Positions 9,268 to 33,397 of a DNA stretch of 64,000 nt are shown in pieces. The stretch is taken from the sequence record OR515477.1. One strand, given 5' to 3'. This stretch comes from Escherichia phage Es2. Under the pieces are notes generated by a model that saw only the letters and a program-made list of their open reading frames with translations, searched no databases and had not been told where the DNA came from. The translations under genes were made by a program, and so were the position numbers. Each line of letters opens with the position of its first letter. The stretch's first letter is position 1.

Positions 9268-9966
9268 ATGAGGATTATTTCTAAGTTCGCCGATGTGTAT
9301 GATTTGCAGAACAGTTTGTTTGACCCAGATCGTGTGTGGGAACGTAAAACTGAGGAGTTACTGGTTAAAGTAACCGATGATGCAGAAAAGAACATTGTGC
9401 ATACTCGCCAGGTATTTCGTGATGGTTCGCTATCTTTCCGTGGTGATTTCGAATACTTTGTAAACCCACTATTTGTTGCAGGTGAAGTTTACTGGTTACA
9501 CGAGCTGTACTGCTGGCATCCAGCATTTAGCTTCAAAACGTTCAACCTCGACACTATGTTCGATAAAATGGAAGAGATGGGATTGCATGCTCGCTCTTAC
9601 TTAATGGATAAGAGTCGCGGAGATGTTCGTGAAACAATGCGTGATTTGCTCGCTGAAGCAAAACCTAAAGCAGAACGTATCTTATCCGAACTGCGTGTAC
9701 CGATTGCATATGTGAAAGGTATTAAGAAGAACGATAACGATGATGTTCGTAACTTCGTGATTCAGACTAACATTCGTTTCCATCAGTCAGGTATTCCGTG
9801 GCAGGAAATTGAAAGTAACTTATACCGTTTACACCAAGTTCTCGAACAGTATATCTTCGGTGTACTAGGAACTGGTGAGCCTGATATGATTAAAGTATCA
9901 GATAAAGACAGGTTAGCAGCGCATGGATTTGATACAAAAACTTCTTTCAGGAATATGGCAAGGTAA
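9268..9966 (+). CDS. hypothetical early protein
   Basis: Track ORF 232 aa. Confidence 0.65.
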   Translation: MRIISKFADVYDLQNSLFDPDRVWERKTEELLVKVTDDAEKNIVHTRQVFRDGSLSFRGDFEYFVNPLFVAGEVYWLHELYCWHPAFSFKTFNLDTMFDKMEEMGLHARSYLMDKSRGDVRETMRDLLAEAKPKAERILSELRVPIAYVKGIKKNDNDDVRNFVIQTNIRFHQSGIPWQEIESNLYRLHQVLEQYIFGVLGTGEPDMIKVSDKDRLAAHGFDTKTSFRNMAR

Positions 9967-21822: not shown

Positions 21823-22532
21823 TTAAAGAAGCCGAAAAATTAAAACGTCTCATCCAGCTAGCGCGGGGTGCTACACAAAAGAGTCTTTCCCAGCTAACTA
21901 ATGAAGAAAAATATGCAGTAATGTTTTTAGGAGATCATTATCCTGCTAGGTGGGATAAAGGTAAGATCAAGTATGATCGTGATGCAAAACAAGTTGTTTG
22001 GTCAGGCTCATATGTAGAAGTGAATAAAGCATTAAAGGCTTTAGATCCTGAAGCAAAAGGTTTCTCTTCTAATGCTATTCATATTCTAATTGATGAAGAT
22101 CTCCCAAGATTTAAGGAAGCATCATTTAAAGAAGCATTAGCTAGTGAAGATCTTATTCCTTTTAAACACGGTAAGTATGCACATCTTCCACCACTAGAAA
22201 AAGAGAAACCTACTCTAGTTAAAGATGAAGTTTATCGTGGGATTGGCACAATGCTAGCGAGTTTGACTGTAGCTCTCCATAAAGATCTAGAGTTAACGCC
22301 CCTAGAAAACGCTGTGCATTTCATGTGCCATAAGTACGAGGATACATTTAAAGAGCTATGTAAGTCGCTAGGAATGCCAAGTTACACGATATTAAACTAT
22401 GCTCCTGAATATACTAGAGCAGCTCGTGGAACTATGGATTACGATGATACAGGATCCACTGCTTCCTATTTAGCAACTTATATCTACTTCGCATCCTTAG
22501 GTATCAAACTCAAATCCAAGAAGGAGGAATAA
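21819..22532 (+). CDS. hypothetical early protein
   Basis: Track ORF 237 aa; last coding gene before the repeat region. Confidence 0.6.
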   Translation: MIKEAEKLKRLIQLARGATQKSLSQLTNEEKYAVMFLGDHYPARWDKGKIKYDRDAKQVVWSGSYVEVNKALKALDPEAKGFSSNAIHILIDEDLPRFKEASFKEALASEDLIPFKHGKYAHLPPLEKEKPTLVKDEVYRGIGTMLASLTVALHKDLELTPLENAVHFMCHKYEDTFKELCKSLGMPSYTILNYAPEYTRAARGTMDYDDTGSTASYLATYIYFASLGIKLKSKKEE

Positions 22533-22549
22533 AAGTTAACAAAAAGTTC

Positions 22550-22579
22550 TTGCATTCTCATACCCAAACATGTTATAAT
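22550..22579 (+). promoter_or_regulatory. sigma70-like promoter firing into the non-coding repeat region
   Basis: TTGCAT - 18 bp - TATAAT; no ORF downstream. Confidence 0.45.
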
Positions 22580-22918
22580 AATCTCATAGATTAACAACTA
22601 CTCTAGTTGATTAACTCTAGGGGCGATGATTATTACACGAATGTCTCGTATAGCTTGCGGCCTAGCAACAGCGGTATGACGGCATGAGTACTCACGTAAT
22701 TAATCACGCGCCCACAGGAGAGACTCTCATGAAATTGGGGGTCTCTTTTTCTTTATATTATTTAAATATTTTTAATGGCAATATCTGTGTTCAAGATGAT
22801 ACACCTGTTGCCGCTCATCTGCTAGGATGGCACAACACTTTCTTCTAGACTCCTAAGTTTCTAGGAATAGTTGAGCACTAACTCTAGAGTTTACATTAAA
22901 CTTTAAATCTGTTTCTCT

Positions 22919-23075
22919 AGTCAACTCAGGCGGTTTTCATATTCCTAGAAACTCTAGCAATAGGCGGTTAATACAGGGCGGTTTTAGGGAGGGCGGTTAT
23001 TTCTAGAAGACATTTTTTGAAAACACATTTCTAGAAATTACTGTCGTATTTGCACACTGCATTTCTAGAAATTTA
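22919..23075. repeat. GGCGGTT direct repeats and ATTTCTAGAAAT palindromic 12-mers
   Basis: Four GGCGGTT(T/A) copies between 22919 and 23000; TTTCTAGAA(A/G) palindromes at about 23010, 23030 and 23062. Confidence 0.7.
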
Positions 23076-23643
23076 TGGTCGGATTTGCACAAACGCCTAA
23101 GTTTTTAGGAACATATAATCTCTTGAAAATGGCAGCATTATTTCGGGCCGAAGGCCCGTGATTGCCTGAGTTTTTAGAGCCACAAGAATTTTCACTTGTC
23201 AAGCTATTTTGCCCCATTTAGCAAATAAAATTTTACTTTATCTCCTCTAATCTCAAATTAACCCAAATCTTCTCAACTCTTCCCCAAAATACCCGCAAAT
23301 CAGGTGCTCCGCACCAAACATGCGCCTCTCCCACAGTTCCCCCAAAATTTCTCTCGCTCTCTCAACTTCTCCCCAAACATACACAATCACACACCCTCCA
23401 ATCGAAGCCACAAAAATCTTGTCGGATTCGCACATCTTAATCCTAGAAAAACCGTGTCGGATTTGCACATACCCCACAGGATTCGAACGCAGTTCGAGAT
23501 TGCTGGAGTTTTTAGGAAAATTCATTGTCGGATTCGCACACTATAAAAATTTTTCGGGTCGGATTTGCACACTACCAAAAATTGTCGGATTCGCACATAC
23601 ACGCCCGCACGTAACACCCGTGGAGCAATGTCGGATTTGCACA
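23042..23643 (+). repeat. eight direct copies of 15-bp motif (T/G)GTCGGATT(T/C)GCACA
   Basis: Copies at 23042, 23077, 23420, 23455, 23525, 23556, 23582 and 23629, all in the same orientation. Confidence 0.85.
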
Positions 23644-23667
23644 AAAGCGCAGGGCAATTGCCCTGCG
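23644..23667. repeat. perfect 24-bp palindrome AGCGCAGGGCAATTGCCCTGCGCT
   Basis: Read directly; centred on CAATTG, immediately after the last 15-bp repeat. Confidence 0.85.
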
Positions 23668-23880
23668 CTAAATGAGAATAAAAATAAGAATCATTCTCAT
23701 TTAGAAAGCGGAATGAGAATGATAATAATTCGCATTTAGAAAGCGAAATGAGAATCAATCTCATTTAAGAACGGAAACGAAAATTATTCAGGAAGTGAAA
23801 CGATTCTCATTTAGAAAGTGGAATGATTCTCATTTAGAAAGTGGAATGCAAATGATAATGATTCGCATTTAAGAATGGAA
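23668..23880. repeat. degenerate repeat family TCATTTAGAAAG(C/T)GGAATGA(T/G)
   Basis: At least six related copies with internal dyads (GAATGATTCTCATTC-like); a further copy at 24207-24232. Confidence 0.7.
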
Positions 23881-24012
23881 GTGAGAAACACTGTTATTTA
23901 AGTTATCCACAGACTTATCAACAGCACGATTTGACTTGACAAAATTCTAGCCATTTTGAGGCGTTATCAACAGACTTATCAACAGCTTATCCTACTGTAT
24001 AAATATACAGTA
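23880..24012. repeat. inverted-repeat arm L with DnaA-box-like 9-mers
   Basis: TTATCCACA at 23903 and TTATCAACA at 23915, 23964 and 23976; palindrome CTGTATAAATATACAG; reverse-complementary to 27111-27245. Confidence 0.8.
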
Positions 24013-24378
24013 TTCCTATGCAGTGAATAATTCTAATATACAGCTAAAACGCTCTCAAACGCATTCTAACGCGTTTAATTTTGGTGGGGATACTAAAACA
24101 CGGGCAAAATTGGAGGAGGCTTAGAAATTAGTTAGCTCGCTAACGATCACACAAGGCGACACGTAACATCCTAACCATTAGCAGGCTAACCATCGCGGGC
24201 GCGGTCAAATGAGAATGATTCTCATTTGAGAATTGGGGGCACTTCCTGATAGTTGCGCCCCGTGATTATTACAGTAGTGGGCAACCTTTACGCTTTGCCC
24301 ATTCCCGCCACTCATCTTGATGTCTAGACTTGCGACGGCGTACTAAAAACCATTTATACCAGTGATTAAACCATCGTT

Positions 24379-24582
24379 TCATAAATCCTCCTCCGGTAGT
24401 CGGTGCGTGATTTTTTCCTCCTCTCCGTAGGAATCCACTAAATGCTGATAATAACCATCGTGATCATAAATCACTTTATCATATTCGCCACGCTCGACCG
24501 CTTGTCGGTTTTCCGGCGTATCTGGCACGTAAAAAACATCAACCATTGTACTGATTTTGGTTACAACAATTTTATTGCTCAT
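24379..24582 (-). CDS. hypothetical small acidic protein
   Basis: Track ORF 67 aa; about 15 Asp/Glu against 7 Lys/Arg; last gene of the leftward operon. Confidence 0.55.
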   Translation of the reverse strand: MSNKIVVTKISTMVDVFYVPDTPENRQAVERGEYDKVIYDHDGYYQHLVDSYGEEEKITHRLPEEDL

Positions 24583-26846: not shown

Positions 26847-27110
26847 TTGTTCGGCCTCCTCGTTAATCGGTGAGTGAATGATAAAGGTATTTTCTTTCTA
26901 GGGGCAAATATTATTTTACCTTTTTATTTTCTTTGCCTAACTCCTAGTTTTATGCTAATCGCGCAGCGGTACAGTAAAGAGCAAAACACGGCGAAGCCAC
27001 CAGGGCGACGGGTGAAGGCTTTACTTTAATATTACCCCACTGCATTTAGCTCGTTAGAAAGCGATTTAGGCCGCTTAAAATTGATTGCAGTTGTTAACAC
27101 TACCTTTTTA

Positions 27111-27245
27111 CCCTGTATATTTATACAGTAGGATAACCTGTGGATAAGTCTGTGTAAAAGTCCTTATATCGCCGCCTATCATGTCAAGTTATTTTACAAA
27201 ATGTATAAGTCTGTGGATAACTTAAATAATAGTGTTTCTCACTAA
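27111..27245. repeat. inverted-repeat arm R with DnaA-box-like 9-mers
   Basis: TGTGGATAA at 27139 and 27212; palindrome CTGTATATTTATACAG; reverse-complementary to 23880-24012. Confidence 0.8.
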
Positions 27246-29920: not shown

Positions 29921-30016
29921 TGTTGCAAATTATAACGCCTATTATTCAAGGCGTTATATTTGGCAATATTTGCCAATAACAAACGTTTTTTAATCCCTTT
30001 AATGGAGTTTATTACT

Positions 30017-31681
30017 ATGATTATTTCCGCAGAAAAACAAACCGTTATCCTGAAAATGGCCGCTGACTTTAATTTCTATGGTAAACGTCTGCGCGCCACT
30101 AAACTGGAGGTCTGCGACGATATATCAAAAGCGGTCTACGATACAACAAAACACTCGACCGCCATTTGTGATTGGCTGGAAGCAAATAAACCAGTTAAAC
30201 CAAAAGCTGCAAAAGTAGCAAAAGCTATTAAAAACGATGAGCGCCCCGAAGCGGCTGGGATCGTTTCTAGCACGGTTGAACAGTGGGAAGTAAAACAAGG
30301 CAAACGCTTTATTATTACGTCGATTCAGAATAATACTTTCCCGCATAAAAACTTTTTGGCCTCGCTTGAACAGTATGCTAAATACATCGGCGCTGATTTG
30401 CTTGTTTCTAAGTATATTTATAATAAAAACGGCTTCCAAAATGGTGAAGGTGCGGATGGAATCAAATATGATTCCGCGTTCGATAAGTATATTTGCAGCA
30501 AAAACGTGTTTTTAAACAACCGCCGTTTTGCTTTCATGGCTGAAATTAACGTTTTGCCTACCGCAGATTATCCGCTTTCTGGATTCGCTGAAACTGCAAC
30601 GGCGCTTAATCTTGAAGGTCTGGCAATTGGTCACGCTAAAATCACCGCCGAAAGCGTGCCAGCTTTAAAAGGTGAAGTAGTACGCCGCATGTACTCAACC
30701 GGAACGGCAACGCTAAAAAACTACATTCAGCAGAAAGCAGGGCAAAAAGCGGAAGCGCTGCATAACTTCGGTGCGCTGATTGTTGAGTTCGACGAAGACG
30801 GTGAGTTTTTTGTACGCCAGCTTGAAACAATGGACGAAAGCGGGGTGTTTTATGATCTGAATGTTTGCGCTACTCCCGCAGGATGCTATGAAACATCGGG
30901 GCATGTTTTAGGTTTACAATATGGCGACATCCACGCAGAAAAATTAGATGATGATTGTGCCGTTGCGTCATGGGCTGGCGAAAATAGCTTGCTTGATATT
31001 CTTAAACCAAAATATCAGTTTATCCATGACGTTCACGATTTTACATCTCGCAATCATCATAATCGTGCGTCCGGTGTATTCCTAGCGAAACAGTACGCCG
31101 CCGGACGTGATAAAGTTCTGGATGATCTTATCGATACGGGGCGCGTGCTGGAATCAATGGAACGTGATTTTAGTCAAACGATCATTGTTGAATCGAATCA
31201 CGATTTGGCGCTATCCCGTTGGCTGGATGATCGTAATGCTAACATTAAAGACGATCCAGCAAACGCCGAACTATATCACCGCCTGAATGCTGCAATTTAC
31301 GCGGCAATCGGTGAACACGACGAAACGTTTAACGTGTTAGATTATGCGCTGCGCAAGGTTGCAGGTTGCGAGTTTAACGCCATTTTCCTAACAACTGACC
31401 AATCATTTAAAATTGCAGGCATCGAGTGTGGCGTACACGGTCACAACGGCATTAACGGAAGCCGTGGCAATCCTAAACAGTTTAAGAAATTGGGCAAACT
31501 GAACACGGGGCATACGCATACGGCAAGCATTTACGGCGGGGTATACACCGCTGGCGTGGCTGGTAGTCTGGACATGGGTTACAACGTTGGCGCGTCAAGC
31601 TGGACGCAAACGCATTTAATTACCTATGCAAACGGTCAGCGCACTTTGATTGACTTTAAAAACGGTAAATTCTTTGCGTAA
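30017..31681 (+). CDS. A1: A1-like pre-early protein with metallophosphatase motifs
   Basis: Track ORF 29960..31681 trimmed to ATG at 30017 with GGAG RBS (554 aa); ESNHD and GHTHT phosphoesterase-like motifs. Confidence 0.7.
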   Translation: MIISAEKQTVILKMAADFNFYGKRLRATKLEVCDDISKAVYDTTKHSTAICDWLEANKPVKPKAAKVAKAIKNDERPEAAGIVSSTVEQWEVKQGKRFIITSIQNNTFPHKNFLASLEQYAKYIGADLLVSKYIYNKNGFQNGEGADGIKYDSAFDKYICSKNVFLNNRRFAFMAEINVLPTADYPLSGFAETATALNLEGLAIGHAKITAESVPALKGEVVRRMYSTGTATLKNYIQQKAGQKAEALHNFGALIVEFDEDGEFFVRQLETMDESGVFYDLNVCATPAGCYETSGHVLGLQYGDIHAEKLDDDCAVASWAGENSLLDILKPKYQFIHDVHDFTSRNHHNRASGVFLAKQYAAGRDKVLDDLIDTGRVLESMERDFSQTIIVESNHDLALSRWLDDRNANIKDDPANAELYHRLNAAIYAAIGEHDETFNVLDYALRKVAGCEFNAIFLTTDQSFKIAGIECGVHGHNGINGSRGNPKQFKKLGKLNTGHTHTASIYGGVYTAGVAGSLDMGYNVGASSWTQTHLITYANGQRTLIDFKNGKFFA

Positions 31682-31735
31682 TTAAATTATTACCCTAGCG
31701 GCTTGAAATACAGCCGCTATTATAGGAGTCAAAAA

Positions 31736-31993
31736 ATGAAAGTTACATTACCCAAAACATTAGACGAAAAAGCGTTTATTTCCCCCGATGAAATGGAATC
31801 CGATAAAGTTTACAGCTTCGGGCCTATCCTAGCCGCCAAAACTAATACTGATGGAATTATTACAGTCGATTATCGTGATAATGATATTGTTCCCTTTGAC
31901 GATGATGACGCTTTTTACGAGTGGTTAAGCGATAATAATTTACCCGTAAGTGGTGAATTAACGCCGTATCAGATGCAAATCATTATCAAATAA
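31736..31993 (+). CDS. hypothetical pre-early protein
   Basis: Track ORF 31703..31993 trimmed to ATG at 31736 with AGGAG RBS. Confidence 0.55.
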   Translation: MKVTLPKTLDEKAFISPDEMESDKVYSFGPILAAKTNTDGIITVDYRDNDIVPFDDDDAFYEWLSDNNLPVSGELTPYQMQIIIK

Positions 31994-32032
31994 TTTAAAT
32001 CCCCTTATTAAACTAATTGGAGTTTTATAACT

Positions 32033-32425
32033 ATGAAAAAGCAAAATATCCCATTCGACCGCGCTCAGTCCTCAATTGTTCTGGTTTATTCCAACGGCGA
32101 ACGTTACCACGTCGAGGCGGGGCACGTTATTGATGACCTATTAGATTTCAATGACGCTTTGCAGGTTACTACCTTTGCATATACGCAGGGCAAACTAACC
32201 AGCCATATTAAAGCAAAAGGCGTTTATGTTGACACGGTGAAACAAGAAACGATTATCATCGACGCCGTAAAATCCGGCCTAGCCTTTGCAGTTGTCGCGC
32301 CTTGCCTCGCTTGCCTTGATGATCAATTGATTAGTGCAAAGGTCTACACATGTGCGGGGATTCGTTCTAGCGTATCCGGTGAGGATGTTAGTTTTATCGC
32401 TGATGCGTTGGCTTATGGTCTTTAA
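32033..32425 (+). CDS. hypothetical pre-early protein
   Basis: Track ORF 130 aa, GGAG RBS. Confidence 0.6.
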   Translation: MKKQNIPFDRAQSSIVLVYSNGERYHVEAGHVIDDLLDFNDALQVTTFAYTQGKLTSHIKAKGVYVDTVKQETIIIDAVKSGLAFAVVAPCLACLDDQLISAKVYTCAGIRSSVSGEDVSFIADALAYGL

Positions 32426-32505
32426 TAGTTGATTTATTATTGCCCGCTTATAAATAGCGGGTAATGCTGAATTAATCTAATCCCTTAAATGGAGAACGTA
32501 ACAAA

Positions 32506-33240
32506 ATGAGTCAAGTTAAAACGAATATTACCCGCTCTTTCCCGCATATTTCCCGCGTTATGATTTGGGATCTGGACGGCACTATCATTAATTCTTTCCA
32601 TCGTGTAGCGCCTTGTTTTGATAGCGAGGGCAATTTAGATTTAAATAAATATAAAAATGAAGCCTGCAAACATCATTTAATAATGCAGGATTCATTATTG
32701 CCATTAGTTGAATATATGCGCCAGTGTATGAATGACGCTAACACGTTAAACATTATTTGCACCGCTCGACTGATGAGCAAGTCAGATTATTATTTCTTGC
32801 GTAAACAAGGATTGCGGGGGCGTGGAAATAGCAATATCCGCGTGTTTTCCCGCGATACCCTGCACAAATACTTTAAAGCTGATAAAGTTAGCGAGATATA
32901 CCACAGTAAGGACGCAGTTTATAAATCTTATTATTTTGAATTATTTAAACAATTATATCCGAACGCTGATTTTACAATGATTGATGATCATAAAGGCGTG
33001 TTAGCGGCGGCGGCATCATACGGATTTAAAACGCTGGACGCACAAGCCGTTAACGATATTCTATCAATCGGTGTTACATTGATTGGTGAAACCTTTATTG
33101 ATGAATCGCTCGACGATGATAATGATTATCAGTTCCTAGCAGACCGCCTGCAATTATGTTGGGAAGGTATGACCGAGGAAGAACGCGCAGAATATAGTTG
33201 CAGTCCTCAACAGTACATCGAGAAATTAAAAGTTGCATAA
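32506..33240 (+). CDS. dmp: 5'-deoxyribonucleotidase, HAD family
   Basis: 244 aa; HAD motif I IWDLDGTIINS; size and position match my recollection of T5 dmp. Confidence 0.75.
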   Translation: MSQVKTNITRSFPHISRVMIWDLDGTIINSFHRVAPCFDSEGNLDLNKYKNEACKHHLIMQDSLLPLVEYMRQCMNDANTLNIICTARLMSKSDYYFLRKQGLRGRGNSNIRVFSRDTLHKYFKADKVSEIYHSKDAVYKSYYFELFKQLYPNADFTMIDDHKGVLAAAASYGFKTLDAQAVNDILSIGVTLIGETFIDESLDDDNDYQFLADRLQLCWEGMTEEERAEYSCSPQQYIEKLKVA

Positions 33241-33397
33241 TAATTAAAGTTGAAATAGTCACGGTGTGTAATGATAACATGCCGTGACTATTAGTCTGCT
33301 AAGTACCGGGCGGTAATGAGACTCATTCTCATCTGGTGGGCCACTGGACACACCTCCATGTGTAATCTTATGAAATTTGGCAAAAAGGTAATTAGCG

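Follow-up and report, generated by a model that had tools for sequence, protein, structure and literature searches.

The question raised by this locus is what a block of related palindromic repeats does between two convergent genes of a phage, and whether it acts as RNA or as DNA. The window, by which we mean the whole stretch of 64,000 nucleotides that was analysed, contains a gene-free stretch of ~1.85 kb (22533-24378) between convergent open reading frames that end at 22532 on the plus strand and at 24379 on the minus strand. The original prediction had put the extent of structured non-coding DNA at about 1.3 kb, which is too short by this measure, and had described a repeat family with internal dyads at 23668-23880, a further copy near 24207 and a set of 15-bp repeats, all of which are present. 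Overlapping units of 23, 28-29 and 35 bp fill 23668-23900, as found both by a repeat search and by TRF. The repeat search returned a 23-nt unit seven times (23689-23879 plus 24214), a 28-nt unit six times and a 91-nt pair of 80% identity (23679-23769 and 23812-23902), together with many inverted repeats among the units; the TRF periods in the array are 23, 29 and 35 bp. The common core of the units is a 21-bp dyad, AAATGAGAATnATTCTCATTT, which is present in five full and two to three half copies within 23668-23900 at centre-to-centre spacings of 23, 29 or 35 bp. When the whole 64-kb window was scanned with AAATGAGAATNATTCTCATTT, seven sites matched at 16 or more of 20 positions, six of them within 23682-24207 and the seventh at 33314, against a chance expectation under a first-order Markov model of ~1.1 sites with at least 15 matches in 64 kb. 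The 15-bp repeat KGTCGKATTYGCACA occurs eight times, against 0.05 expected.

The individual dyads are well preserved. Dyad 1, AAATAAGAATCATTCTCATTT (23682-23702), agrees with the dyad consensus at 19 of 20 positions and scores 19.3 bits against the window background, or 22.1 bits against a uniform background, with a Fur matrix derived from Escherichia coli that is described below. Dyad 2, GAATGATAATAATTCGCATTT (23717-23737), scores 18.5 bits with the same matrix, matches 13 of the 15 positions of the 7-1-7 Fur consensus and is overlapped by a weaker dyad register at 23711, and dyad 3, AAATGAGAATCAATCTCATTT (23746-23766; 18.0 bits), is part of a 29-bp unit. These are followed by two 23-bp units (23792-23835, with starts at 23792 and 23815) that carry mainly the right half-site ..ATTCTCATTT and match the consensus at 14 and 17 of 20 positions; the 23-nt repeat copies at 23799 and 23822 fall in them. 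Dyad 4, AAATGATAATGATTCGCATTT (23850-23870; 19.7 bits), recurs as an identical 21-mer in the myovirus Schickermooser, and a degenerate copy lies at 23879. A separate, perfect 21-bp palindrome, AAATGAGAATGATTCTCATTT (24207-24227), matches at all 20 positions and is the top Fur-matrix match of the window at 21.1 bits. It adjoins a G+C-rich hairpin just after the last pre-early gene, and a dyad of this type is kept in most relatives ~330 bp from the array. Hypothetical proteins have been annotated over the array in some records, a coding reading that we reject because steps of 23, 29 and 35 bp and a variable copy number in close relatives break any frame; in relatives the copy number changes in steps that are not multiples of 3.

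It had further been proposed that a promoter at 22550 fires into the repeats, which would then be transcribed as a structured non-coding RNA. The TTGCAT-18-TATAAT element is indeed found at 22550-22579 on the plus strand, with a TG-extended -10 (TTGCAT-18-TGtTATAAT), and it begins a unit apart from the array (22550-22757), comprising promoter, a candidate structured transcript of ~170 nt and an intrinsic terminator. This strong terminator, with a 14-bp stem and a T-run (22716-22757), lies 140-200 nt after the promoter and ~920 nt before the repeats, and the ~170 nt that follow the promoter fold very stably (-61 kcal/mol, z = -6.3). The unit is nearly identical in Kenya-K38; T5 keeps the position of the promoter and has a diverged body, and no Rfam family matches the unit. 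On these predicted elements it looks like a self-contained small transcription unit and could encode a small RNA that has so far gone unannotated, at the border of the early region.

Transcription of the repeats themselves would be suggested by this conserved promoter-like element, which points at the region, and by the stable RNA folds that the repeats can form. Against this, the terminator intervenes between promoter and repeats, and the repeats fold equally on both strands (z -5.2 and -6.2), so that the predicted folds carry no strand-specific structure and do not discriminate, because DNA palindromes fold on both strands. The mismatches within the dyads also lack the wobble bias that would support pairing: among 69 distinct dyads from 39 loci, 98 of the 162 mismatched symmetric positions are non-wobble. 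Rfam matches to the repeats are confined to SprD, PrrF and GcvB at 18-26 bits, where the gathering scores are 42-100, which is chance level, and the number of units varies freely among close relatives. From these comparisons and predictions we reject the non-coding RNA interpretation as unlikely, and see virtually no chance that the repeats are transcribed from the 22550 promoter to act in this way. What stands of the original view is that the DNA is structured and non-coding and that a comparison with injection-stop regions is apt.

That comparison identifies the block. In all, 457 phage records match the region, with T5-like phages (Tequintavirus) throughout the top of the list and Salmonella phage VSe12 as the best DNA match (92%). 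The plus strand of the window is the reverse of the conventional T5 orientation. The array (23668-23900) aligns collinearly with positions 9464-9650 of T5 (AY587007), an interval for which the deposited record lists "direct repeat C copies 1-4" and "palindromes E, F, G, H, I" and which sits within the misc_feature "injection stop signal (iss)" of AY543070. Every one of the 37 close T5-like loci that cover this region has the array, in which 4-10 units reach at least 14 bits. First-step transfer in T5 has a calculated shear point of ~9618, and the repeats have been described in 25 T5-like phages (Davison 2020, bioRxiv 10.1101/866236). Position 9618 falls in copy 4 of direct repeat C, inside the block homologous to the array. 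Judged by this homology, the array is the direct-repeat-C and palindrome E-I segment of the T5-type injection stop signal region, and the repeat family is an already known, annotated T5 feature, because the deposited T5 features and the Davison preprint cover the homologous block.

The surroundings agree with this assignment, both in position (a long untranslated stretch where the terminal repeat has its inner end and pre-early genes border on early ones) and in the order of the flanking elements. T5 Repeat Region 3 (AY587007, AY543070) occupies the same place and has the same order of palindrome D, pairs of DnaA boxes, array, palindrome J with nick 1, and direct repeat D. T5 differs in that it lacks one 29-bp unit of this phage, the one to which dyad 3 belongs, and in that it has palindrome C where this phage has the additional perfect dyad at 24207; the number of units differs among relatives as well. 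Next to the array is a perfect 24-bp palindrome, AGCGCAGGGCAATTGCCCTGCGCT (23646-23669), the homologue of T5 palindrome J with its annotated 7.9% major nick, followed on the same side by six copies of the 15-bp repeat TGTCGGATTYGCACA (T5 direct repeat D) on the plus strand at 23420-23643. Two more copies of this repeat, at 23042 and 23077, lie outside the terminal repeat. On the other side of the array, four DnaA boxes (TTATCCACA once and TTATCAACA three times; plus strand, 23903-23984) form two pairs 3 bp apart, which corresponds to the IRD'-spacer-IRC' arrangement of T5. The window contains seven DnaA boxes, against 1.6 expected, and a cluster of them is present beside the array; electron microscopy placed the T5 replication origins near the middle of the genome (T5 literature).

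Beyond the DnaA boxes lies a palindrome that resembles an SOS (LexA) box, TACTGTATAAATATACAGTA (23992-24011), which is T5 palindrome D. The SOS box has the consensus TACTG(TA)5CAGTA. The palindrome is one base off it, and a second SOS-like copy, CTGTATATTTATACAG, is found at 27110-27131 in an inverted duplicate of the DnaA-box element (27113-27220). The pattern CTGTAT-N4-ATACAG beside the array is kept in 32 of 39 loci. LexA is not mentioned in the Davison 2020 preprint (bioRxiv 10.1101/866236).

The inner boundary of the direct terminal repeat maps approximately to 23177-23205, as transferred from the annotated boundaries of T5 and Kenya-K38, and the left terminus of Kenya-K38 maps to ~33330 of the window. 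In the window the terminal repeat is therefore represented by a single collapsed copy, flanked by unique sequence at either end. This direct terminal repeat measures ~10 kb and includes the array 470-700 bp from its inner boundary, and the genes A1, A2 and dmp are located at 29960-33240. Just after the dmp terminator there is another Fur-like dyad, TAATGAGACTCATTCTCATCT (33314-33334); the left end of the Kenya-K38 genome, as annotated, maps within it (~33330). Many relatives have kept this dyad, but T5 lacks it and has a different left end. Within the dmp coding sequence itself, TGATAATGATTATCA (33117-33131) matches the 7-1-7 Fur consensus at 15 of 15 positions, encodes the acidic stretch DDDNDY and is found again in many relatives with scores of 14-18 bits; the coding sequence may have produced this match by coincidence. 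Several further features were observed in the remainder of the gene-free region. A block of ~95 nt (~22790-22883, TTCAAGATGATACACCTGTTGCCGCTCATCTGCTAGGATGGCACAACACTTTCTTCTAGACTCC...), outside the terminal repeat, matches T5 but for one substitution (A/G at ~22854), and the sequence just before it is strongly diverged from T5. Palindromes of the TTTCTAGAAA type occur, for example, at 23026-23039 and 23060-23073, three GGGCGGTT repeats lie at 22962-22998, repeats of the CCTAAGTTTTTAGGAA type are found within 22850-23410, and there is a strong C/T bias at 23230-23410, just inside the terminal-repeat boundary.

Dyad arrays are not confined to Tequintavirus. An Epseptimavirus has one as well, and a Klebsiella Sugarlandvirus has five dyads that are exactly 35 bp apart. 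Unrelated myoviruses (Certrevirus, Seunavirus, Vequintavirus and Phapecoctavirus) also have such arrays, there with a 29-bp step and within long stretches free of genes; among them are the Cronobacter phages CR8 and CR3, Salmonella phage KE23 and the Escherichia phages Schickermooser, tuntematon and nimi. In these genomes two to four dyads lie in gene-free regions of 0.6-1 kb that are rich in other repeats (in our set of loci, L004 1477-1600, L005 1463-1580, L006 1501-1550, L066 1170-1365 and L067 1230-1310). In each of them the last dyad precedes a conserved G+C-rich element (..AGAAT..GGGCAC/GGGCAG..GGTGATTGTCTCC), and the sequence that follows the 24207 dyad of this phage, GAGAATTGGGGGCAC...GTGATT, is similar to it. 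No such sites were found in 14 metagenomic contigs that encode a distant relative of A1 (36-47% identical).

Several lines of evidence show that the dyads are equivalent in sequence to operators of the ferric uptake regulator, Fur. The Fur consensus is given either as a 19-mer, GATAATGATAATCATTATC, or in the 7-1-7 form, TGATAATnATTATCA. Measured against the textbook consensus, the phage dyads match only 14-15 of 19 positions of the 19-mer and 13 of 15 positions of the 7-1-7 form, because most of them carry GAGAAT instead of GATAAT, with G in place of the consensus T at the fourth base of the half-site. The phage core TGAGAATnATTCTCA accordingly shows one symmetric difference per half from TGATAATnATTATCA. 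Comparisons by matrix were made in both directions. In the forward direction, a palindromised matrix was built from 23 phage dyads only and used to scan 200 kb of E. coli K-12, a selection that takes in promoters known to be Fur-regulated; seven Fur-regulated regions (fecI, fecA, fhuA, fepB-entC, cirA, fepA-fes and fepD-entS) make up 0.78% of this sequence. Six of the top ten matches, and eight of the top 20, fall in these seven promoter regions, a result that none of 200 column-permuted control matrices equalled. In a further 100 kb of K-12 that had not been used before, the top match of the phage-dyad matrix is the ryhB promoter, and the feoA and tonB promoters are also among the top 12. Fur regulation of these E. 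coli promoters is established (EcoCyc/RegulonDB).

In the reverse direction, an unseeded Gibbs sampler was applied to ten Fur-regulated promoter regions of E. coli and returned the motif AATGATAATCATTATCATT, which is identical to the phage consensus AATGAGAATCATTCTCATT at 17 of 19 positions. The top five matches of the resulting matrix in the 64-kb window (24208, 23851, 23683, 23718 and 23747) all lie in the repeat block, and three of 500 permuted controls did as well. With 20-23 bits, the phage dyads score in the range of the E. coli sites that trained the matrix. Thus, reciprocal searches with the phage dyads and with E. coli Fur operators such as those of the ryhB, fhuA, fecI and fepB-entC promoters retrieve each other's sites; the half-site ATTCTCATT occurs in the E. 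coli ryhB and feoA sites, and ATTCTCGTT in that of fhuA. By sequence, the dyads are accordingly classed as putative Fur-box-type operators of the 7-1-7 type (TGAgAATnATTcTCA), with a fourth half-site base at which the phage favors G over T. They differ from host operators in their setting. Fur operators of the host lie at promoters, with one to three overlapping boxes, whereas the phage arrays have 5-10 strong tandem sites at steps of 23, 29 or 35 bp, lie at no promoter of an iron-responsive gene and have no gene downstream on either strand, let alone an iron-related one. The only promoter-like matches at the array are weak and are generated by the A+T-rich motif itself.

A few observations adjoin these comparisons. 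Hexamer periodicity has been described for Fur sites, and the dyad spacings in the window and 39 loci lie on a 6-bp ladder of 23, 29, 35, 41 and 47 bp (35 and 29 bp are by far the commonest, and sums of ladder values also occur), which recalls this periodicity but is offset by 5 modulo 6. Both matrices also give strong matches in K-12 upstream of oppA (L062 10940), in the map-rpsB intergenic region (L008 44581) and between yeiS and preT (L010 13861); we did not count these as Fur-regulated, and they could be either false positives or Fur sites that have escaped recognition. We also weighed, and rejected, a Zur box, whose consensus shares only the outer AAATG/CATTT with the dyads and differs from them in the inner five bases of each half-site. 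BLAST of the array against 5,426 complete E. coli genomes gave a single chance match in alkB, which says nothing either way because the sites are too short for BLAST. The searchable literature, whose coverage leaves out the 1987 and 2005 papers and Davison 2015, mentions neither Fur nor LexA in connection with the repeats, and the Fur-box reading of the T5 repeats may be new.

Taken together, we favor as rather probable the hypothesis that the known injection stop block is a protein-binding array at the level of DNA, with host Fur as its most likely occupant. The array, with its two-fold-symmetric 21-bp operators and one isolated perfect site, would work as double-stranded DNA and not as RNA. 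Fur is abundant, is present before infection and spreads along arrays of its sites. It would be the likeliest occupant in that it is there when the DNA arrives and needs no phage expression; since the pause in DNA entry requires no new protein synthesis, sites for pre-existing host proteins would be a logical design. The elements enter the cell in the order SOS-like box, two pairs of DnaA boxes, array and 7.9% nick site, and the array lies where first-step transfer ends in T5. We propose that Fur would bind the array on its entry into the cell and that, with DnaA and possibly LexA, it would become part of a complex of host proteins on the phage DNA, one that marks where first-step transfer gives way to second-step transfer, and that binding to the array would contribute to the pause. 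Clusters of host-factor sites in cis-acting elements have textbook parallels in the DnaA-box arrays of oriC and the IHF site in lambda cosB; likewise, predicted DnaA, SOS-like and Fur-like sites are packed in this phage in a non-coding control region by the genome end.

We hold the functional parts of this proposal with less confidence than the binding. That Fur is causally involved in the DNA-entry pause seems possible but doubtful. Similarly, we put forward only tentatively that the palindromes are genuine high-affinity Fur sites which, with the DnaA and LexA boxes, constitute a landing pad that sets the pause or its iron dependence, and that unrelated myoviruses have acquired such arrays. 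The array lies between convergent transcription units and at no promoter of an iron gene, an unusual setting for a Fur operator. Receptors repressed by Fur, for example FhuA or FepA, are often those used by T5-like phages, whose hosts may therefore be for the most part iron-starved cells with little active Fur. In addition, it is not obvious how a cytoplasmic protein, sitting on DNA that is already inside the cell, could stop the DNA behind it. Finally, 0.5-0.7 kb separate the array copy of the right terminal repeat from the right-hand physical end of the genome, a position that would suit packaging or end formation just as well.

Other readings at the level of DNA have to be weighed against Fur binding. 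The dyads could be operators of a phage-encoded protein, the pre-early protein A2 or another, in which case the likeness to Fur boxes would be convergent or incidental. A2 is a DNA-binding protein that is needed to resume (second-step) transfer (T5 literature), and the dyads, with their strongly conserved AAAT/ATTT flanks, are more uniform and symmetric than typical host Fur sites, as would suit a dedicated protein. Yet the arrest precedes any phage protein, and a phage protein could therefore act only in the release; moreover, the reciprocal matrix tests point specifically to Fur. The distribution of A2 also speaks against this reading, as tblastn found homologues in 438 records, all T5-like, and none in the array-bearing myoviruses or in most of the array-bearing Klebsiella Sugarlandvirus records. 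A search of Pfam returned no family for A1, A2, dmp or the open reading frame between A1 and A2, and with it no clue to a phage-encoded binder. Because the dyads occur in unrelated myoviruses, A2 homologues are confined to T5-like records and the 14 contigs with a distant A1 relative lack such sites, the distribution would be more easily explained by an enterobacterial host factor than by a phage-encoded binder, and we regard operators of a phage protein as fairly improbable.

Alternatively, the array could be a signal for packaging, for generation of the terminal repeat or for recombination or replication at the genome ends, with or without host accessory proteins. Its distance of 470-700 bp from the inner boundary of the terminal repeat, with the right copy equally far from the genome end, would fit such a role, as would the 15-bp repeats on both sides of that boundary, the location of the myovirus arrays in long gene-free regions full of iteron-like repeats and the annotated left terminus of the Kenya-K38 type inside another such dyad. 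T5, however, has no dyad at its experimentally defined left end, and its shear point maps inside the block; we consider an end function improbable. This reading is compatible with Fur binding and competes with it on function only. It is highly implausible that the palindromes brake the DNA mechanically in the tail or channel as cruciforms or hairpins, with no sequence-specific protein involved. This is the classical view cited in the literature, and the dense nested inverted repeats and the strongly negative folding z-scores on both strands are in line with it, but the arms are ~10 bp long, A+T-rich and often imperfect, and the excess of non-wobble mismatches (98/162) is again out of keeping with pairing. 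What is conserved is a base pattern, TG..AAT.ATT..CA, beyond mere pairing, and this pattern is kept in myoviruses that have no known two-step injection.

Occupation of the dyads by Fur thus remains the reading that we prefer, and its interest does not lie in the presence of the block as such, which is a textbook T5 feature and ordinary in another T5-like phage. The stop of T5 DNA entry at 8% has been an open question since the 1960s, and experimental studies of the repeats are still lacking according to papers from 2023 and 2026. If the repeats are of the Fur-box type and shared with unrelated phages, the vague description of "many repeats and palindromes" would give way to a specific and cheaply testable hypothesis. 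If true, this would suggest that lytic phages make general use of Fur beyond the control of promoters, in a way that has yet to be described.
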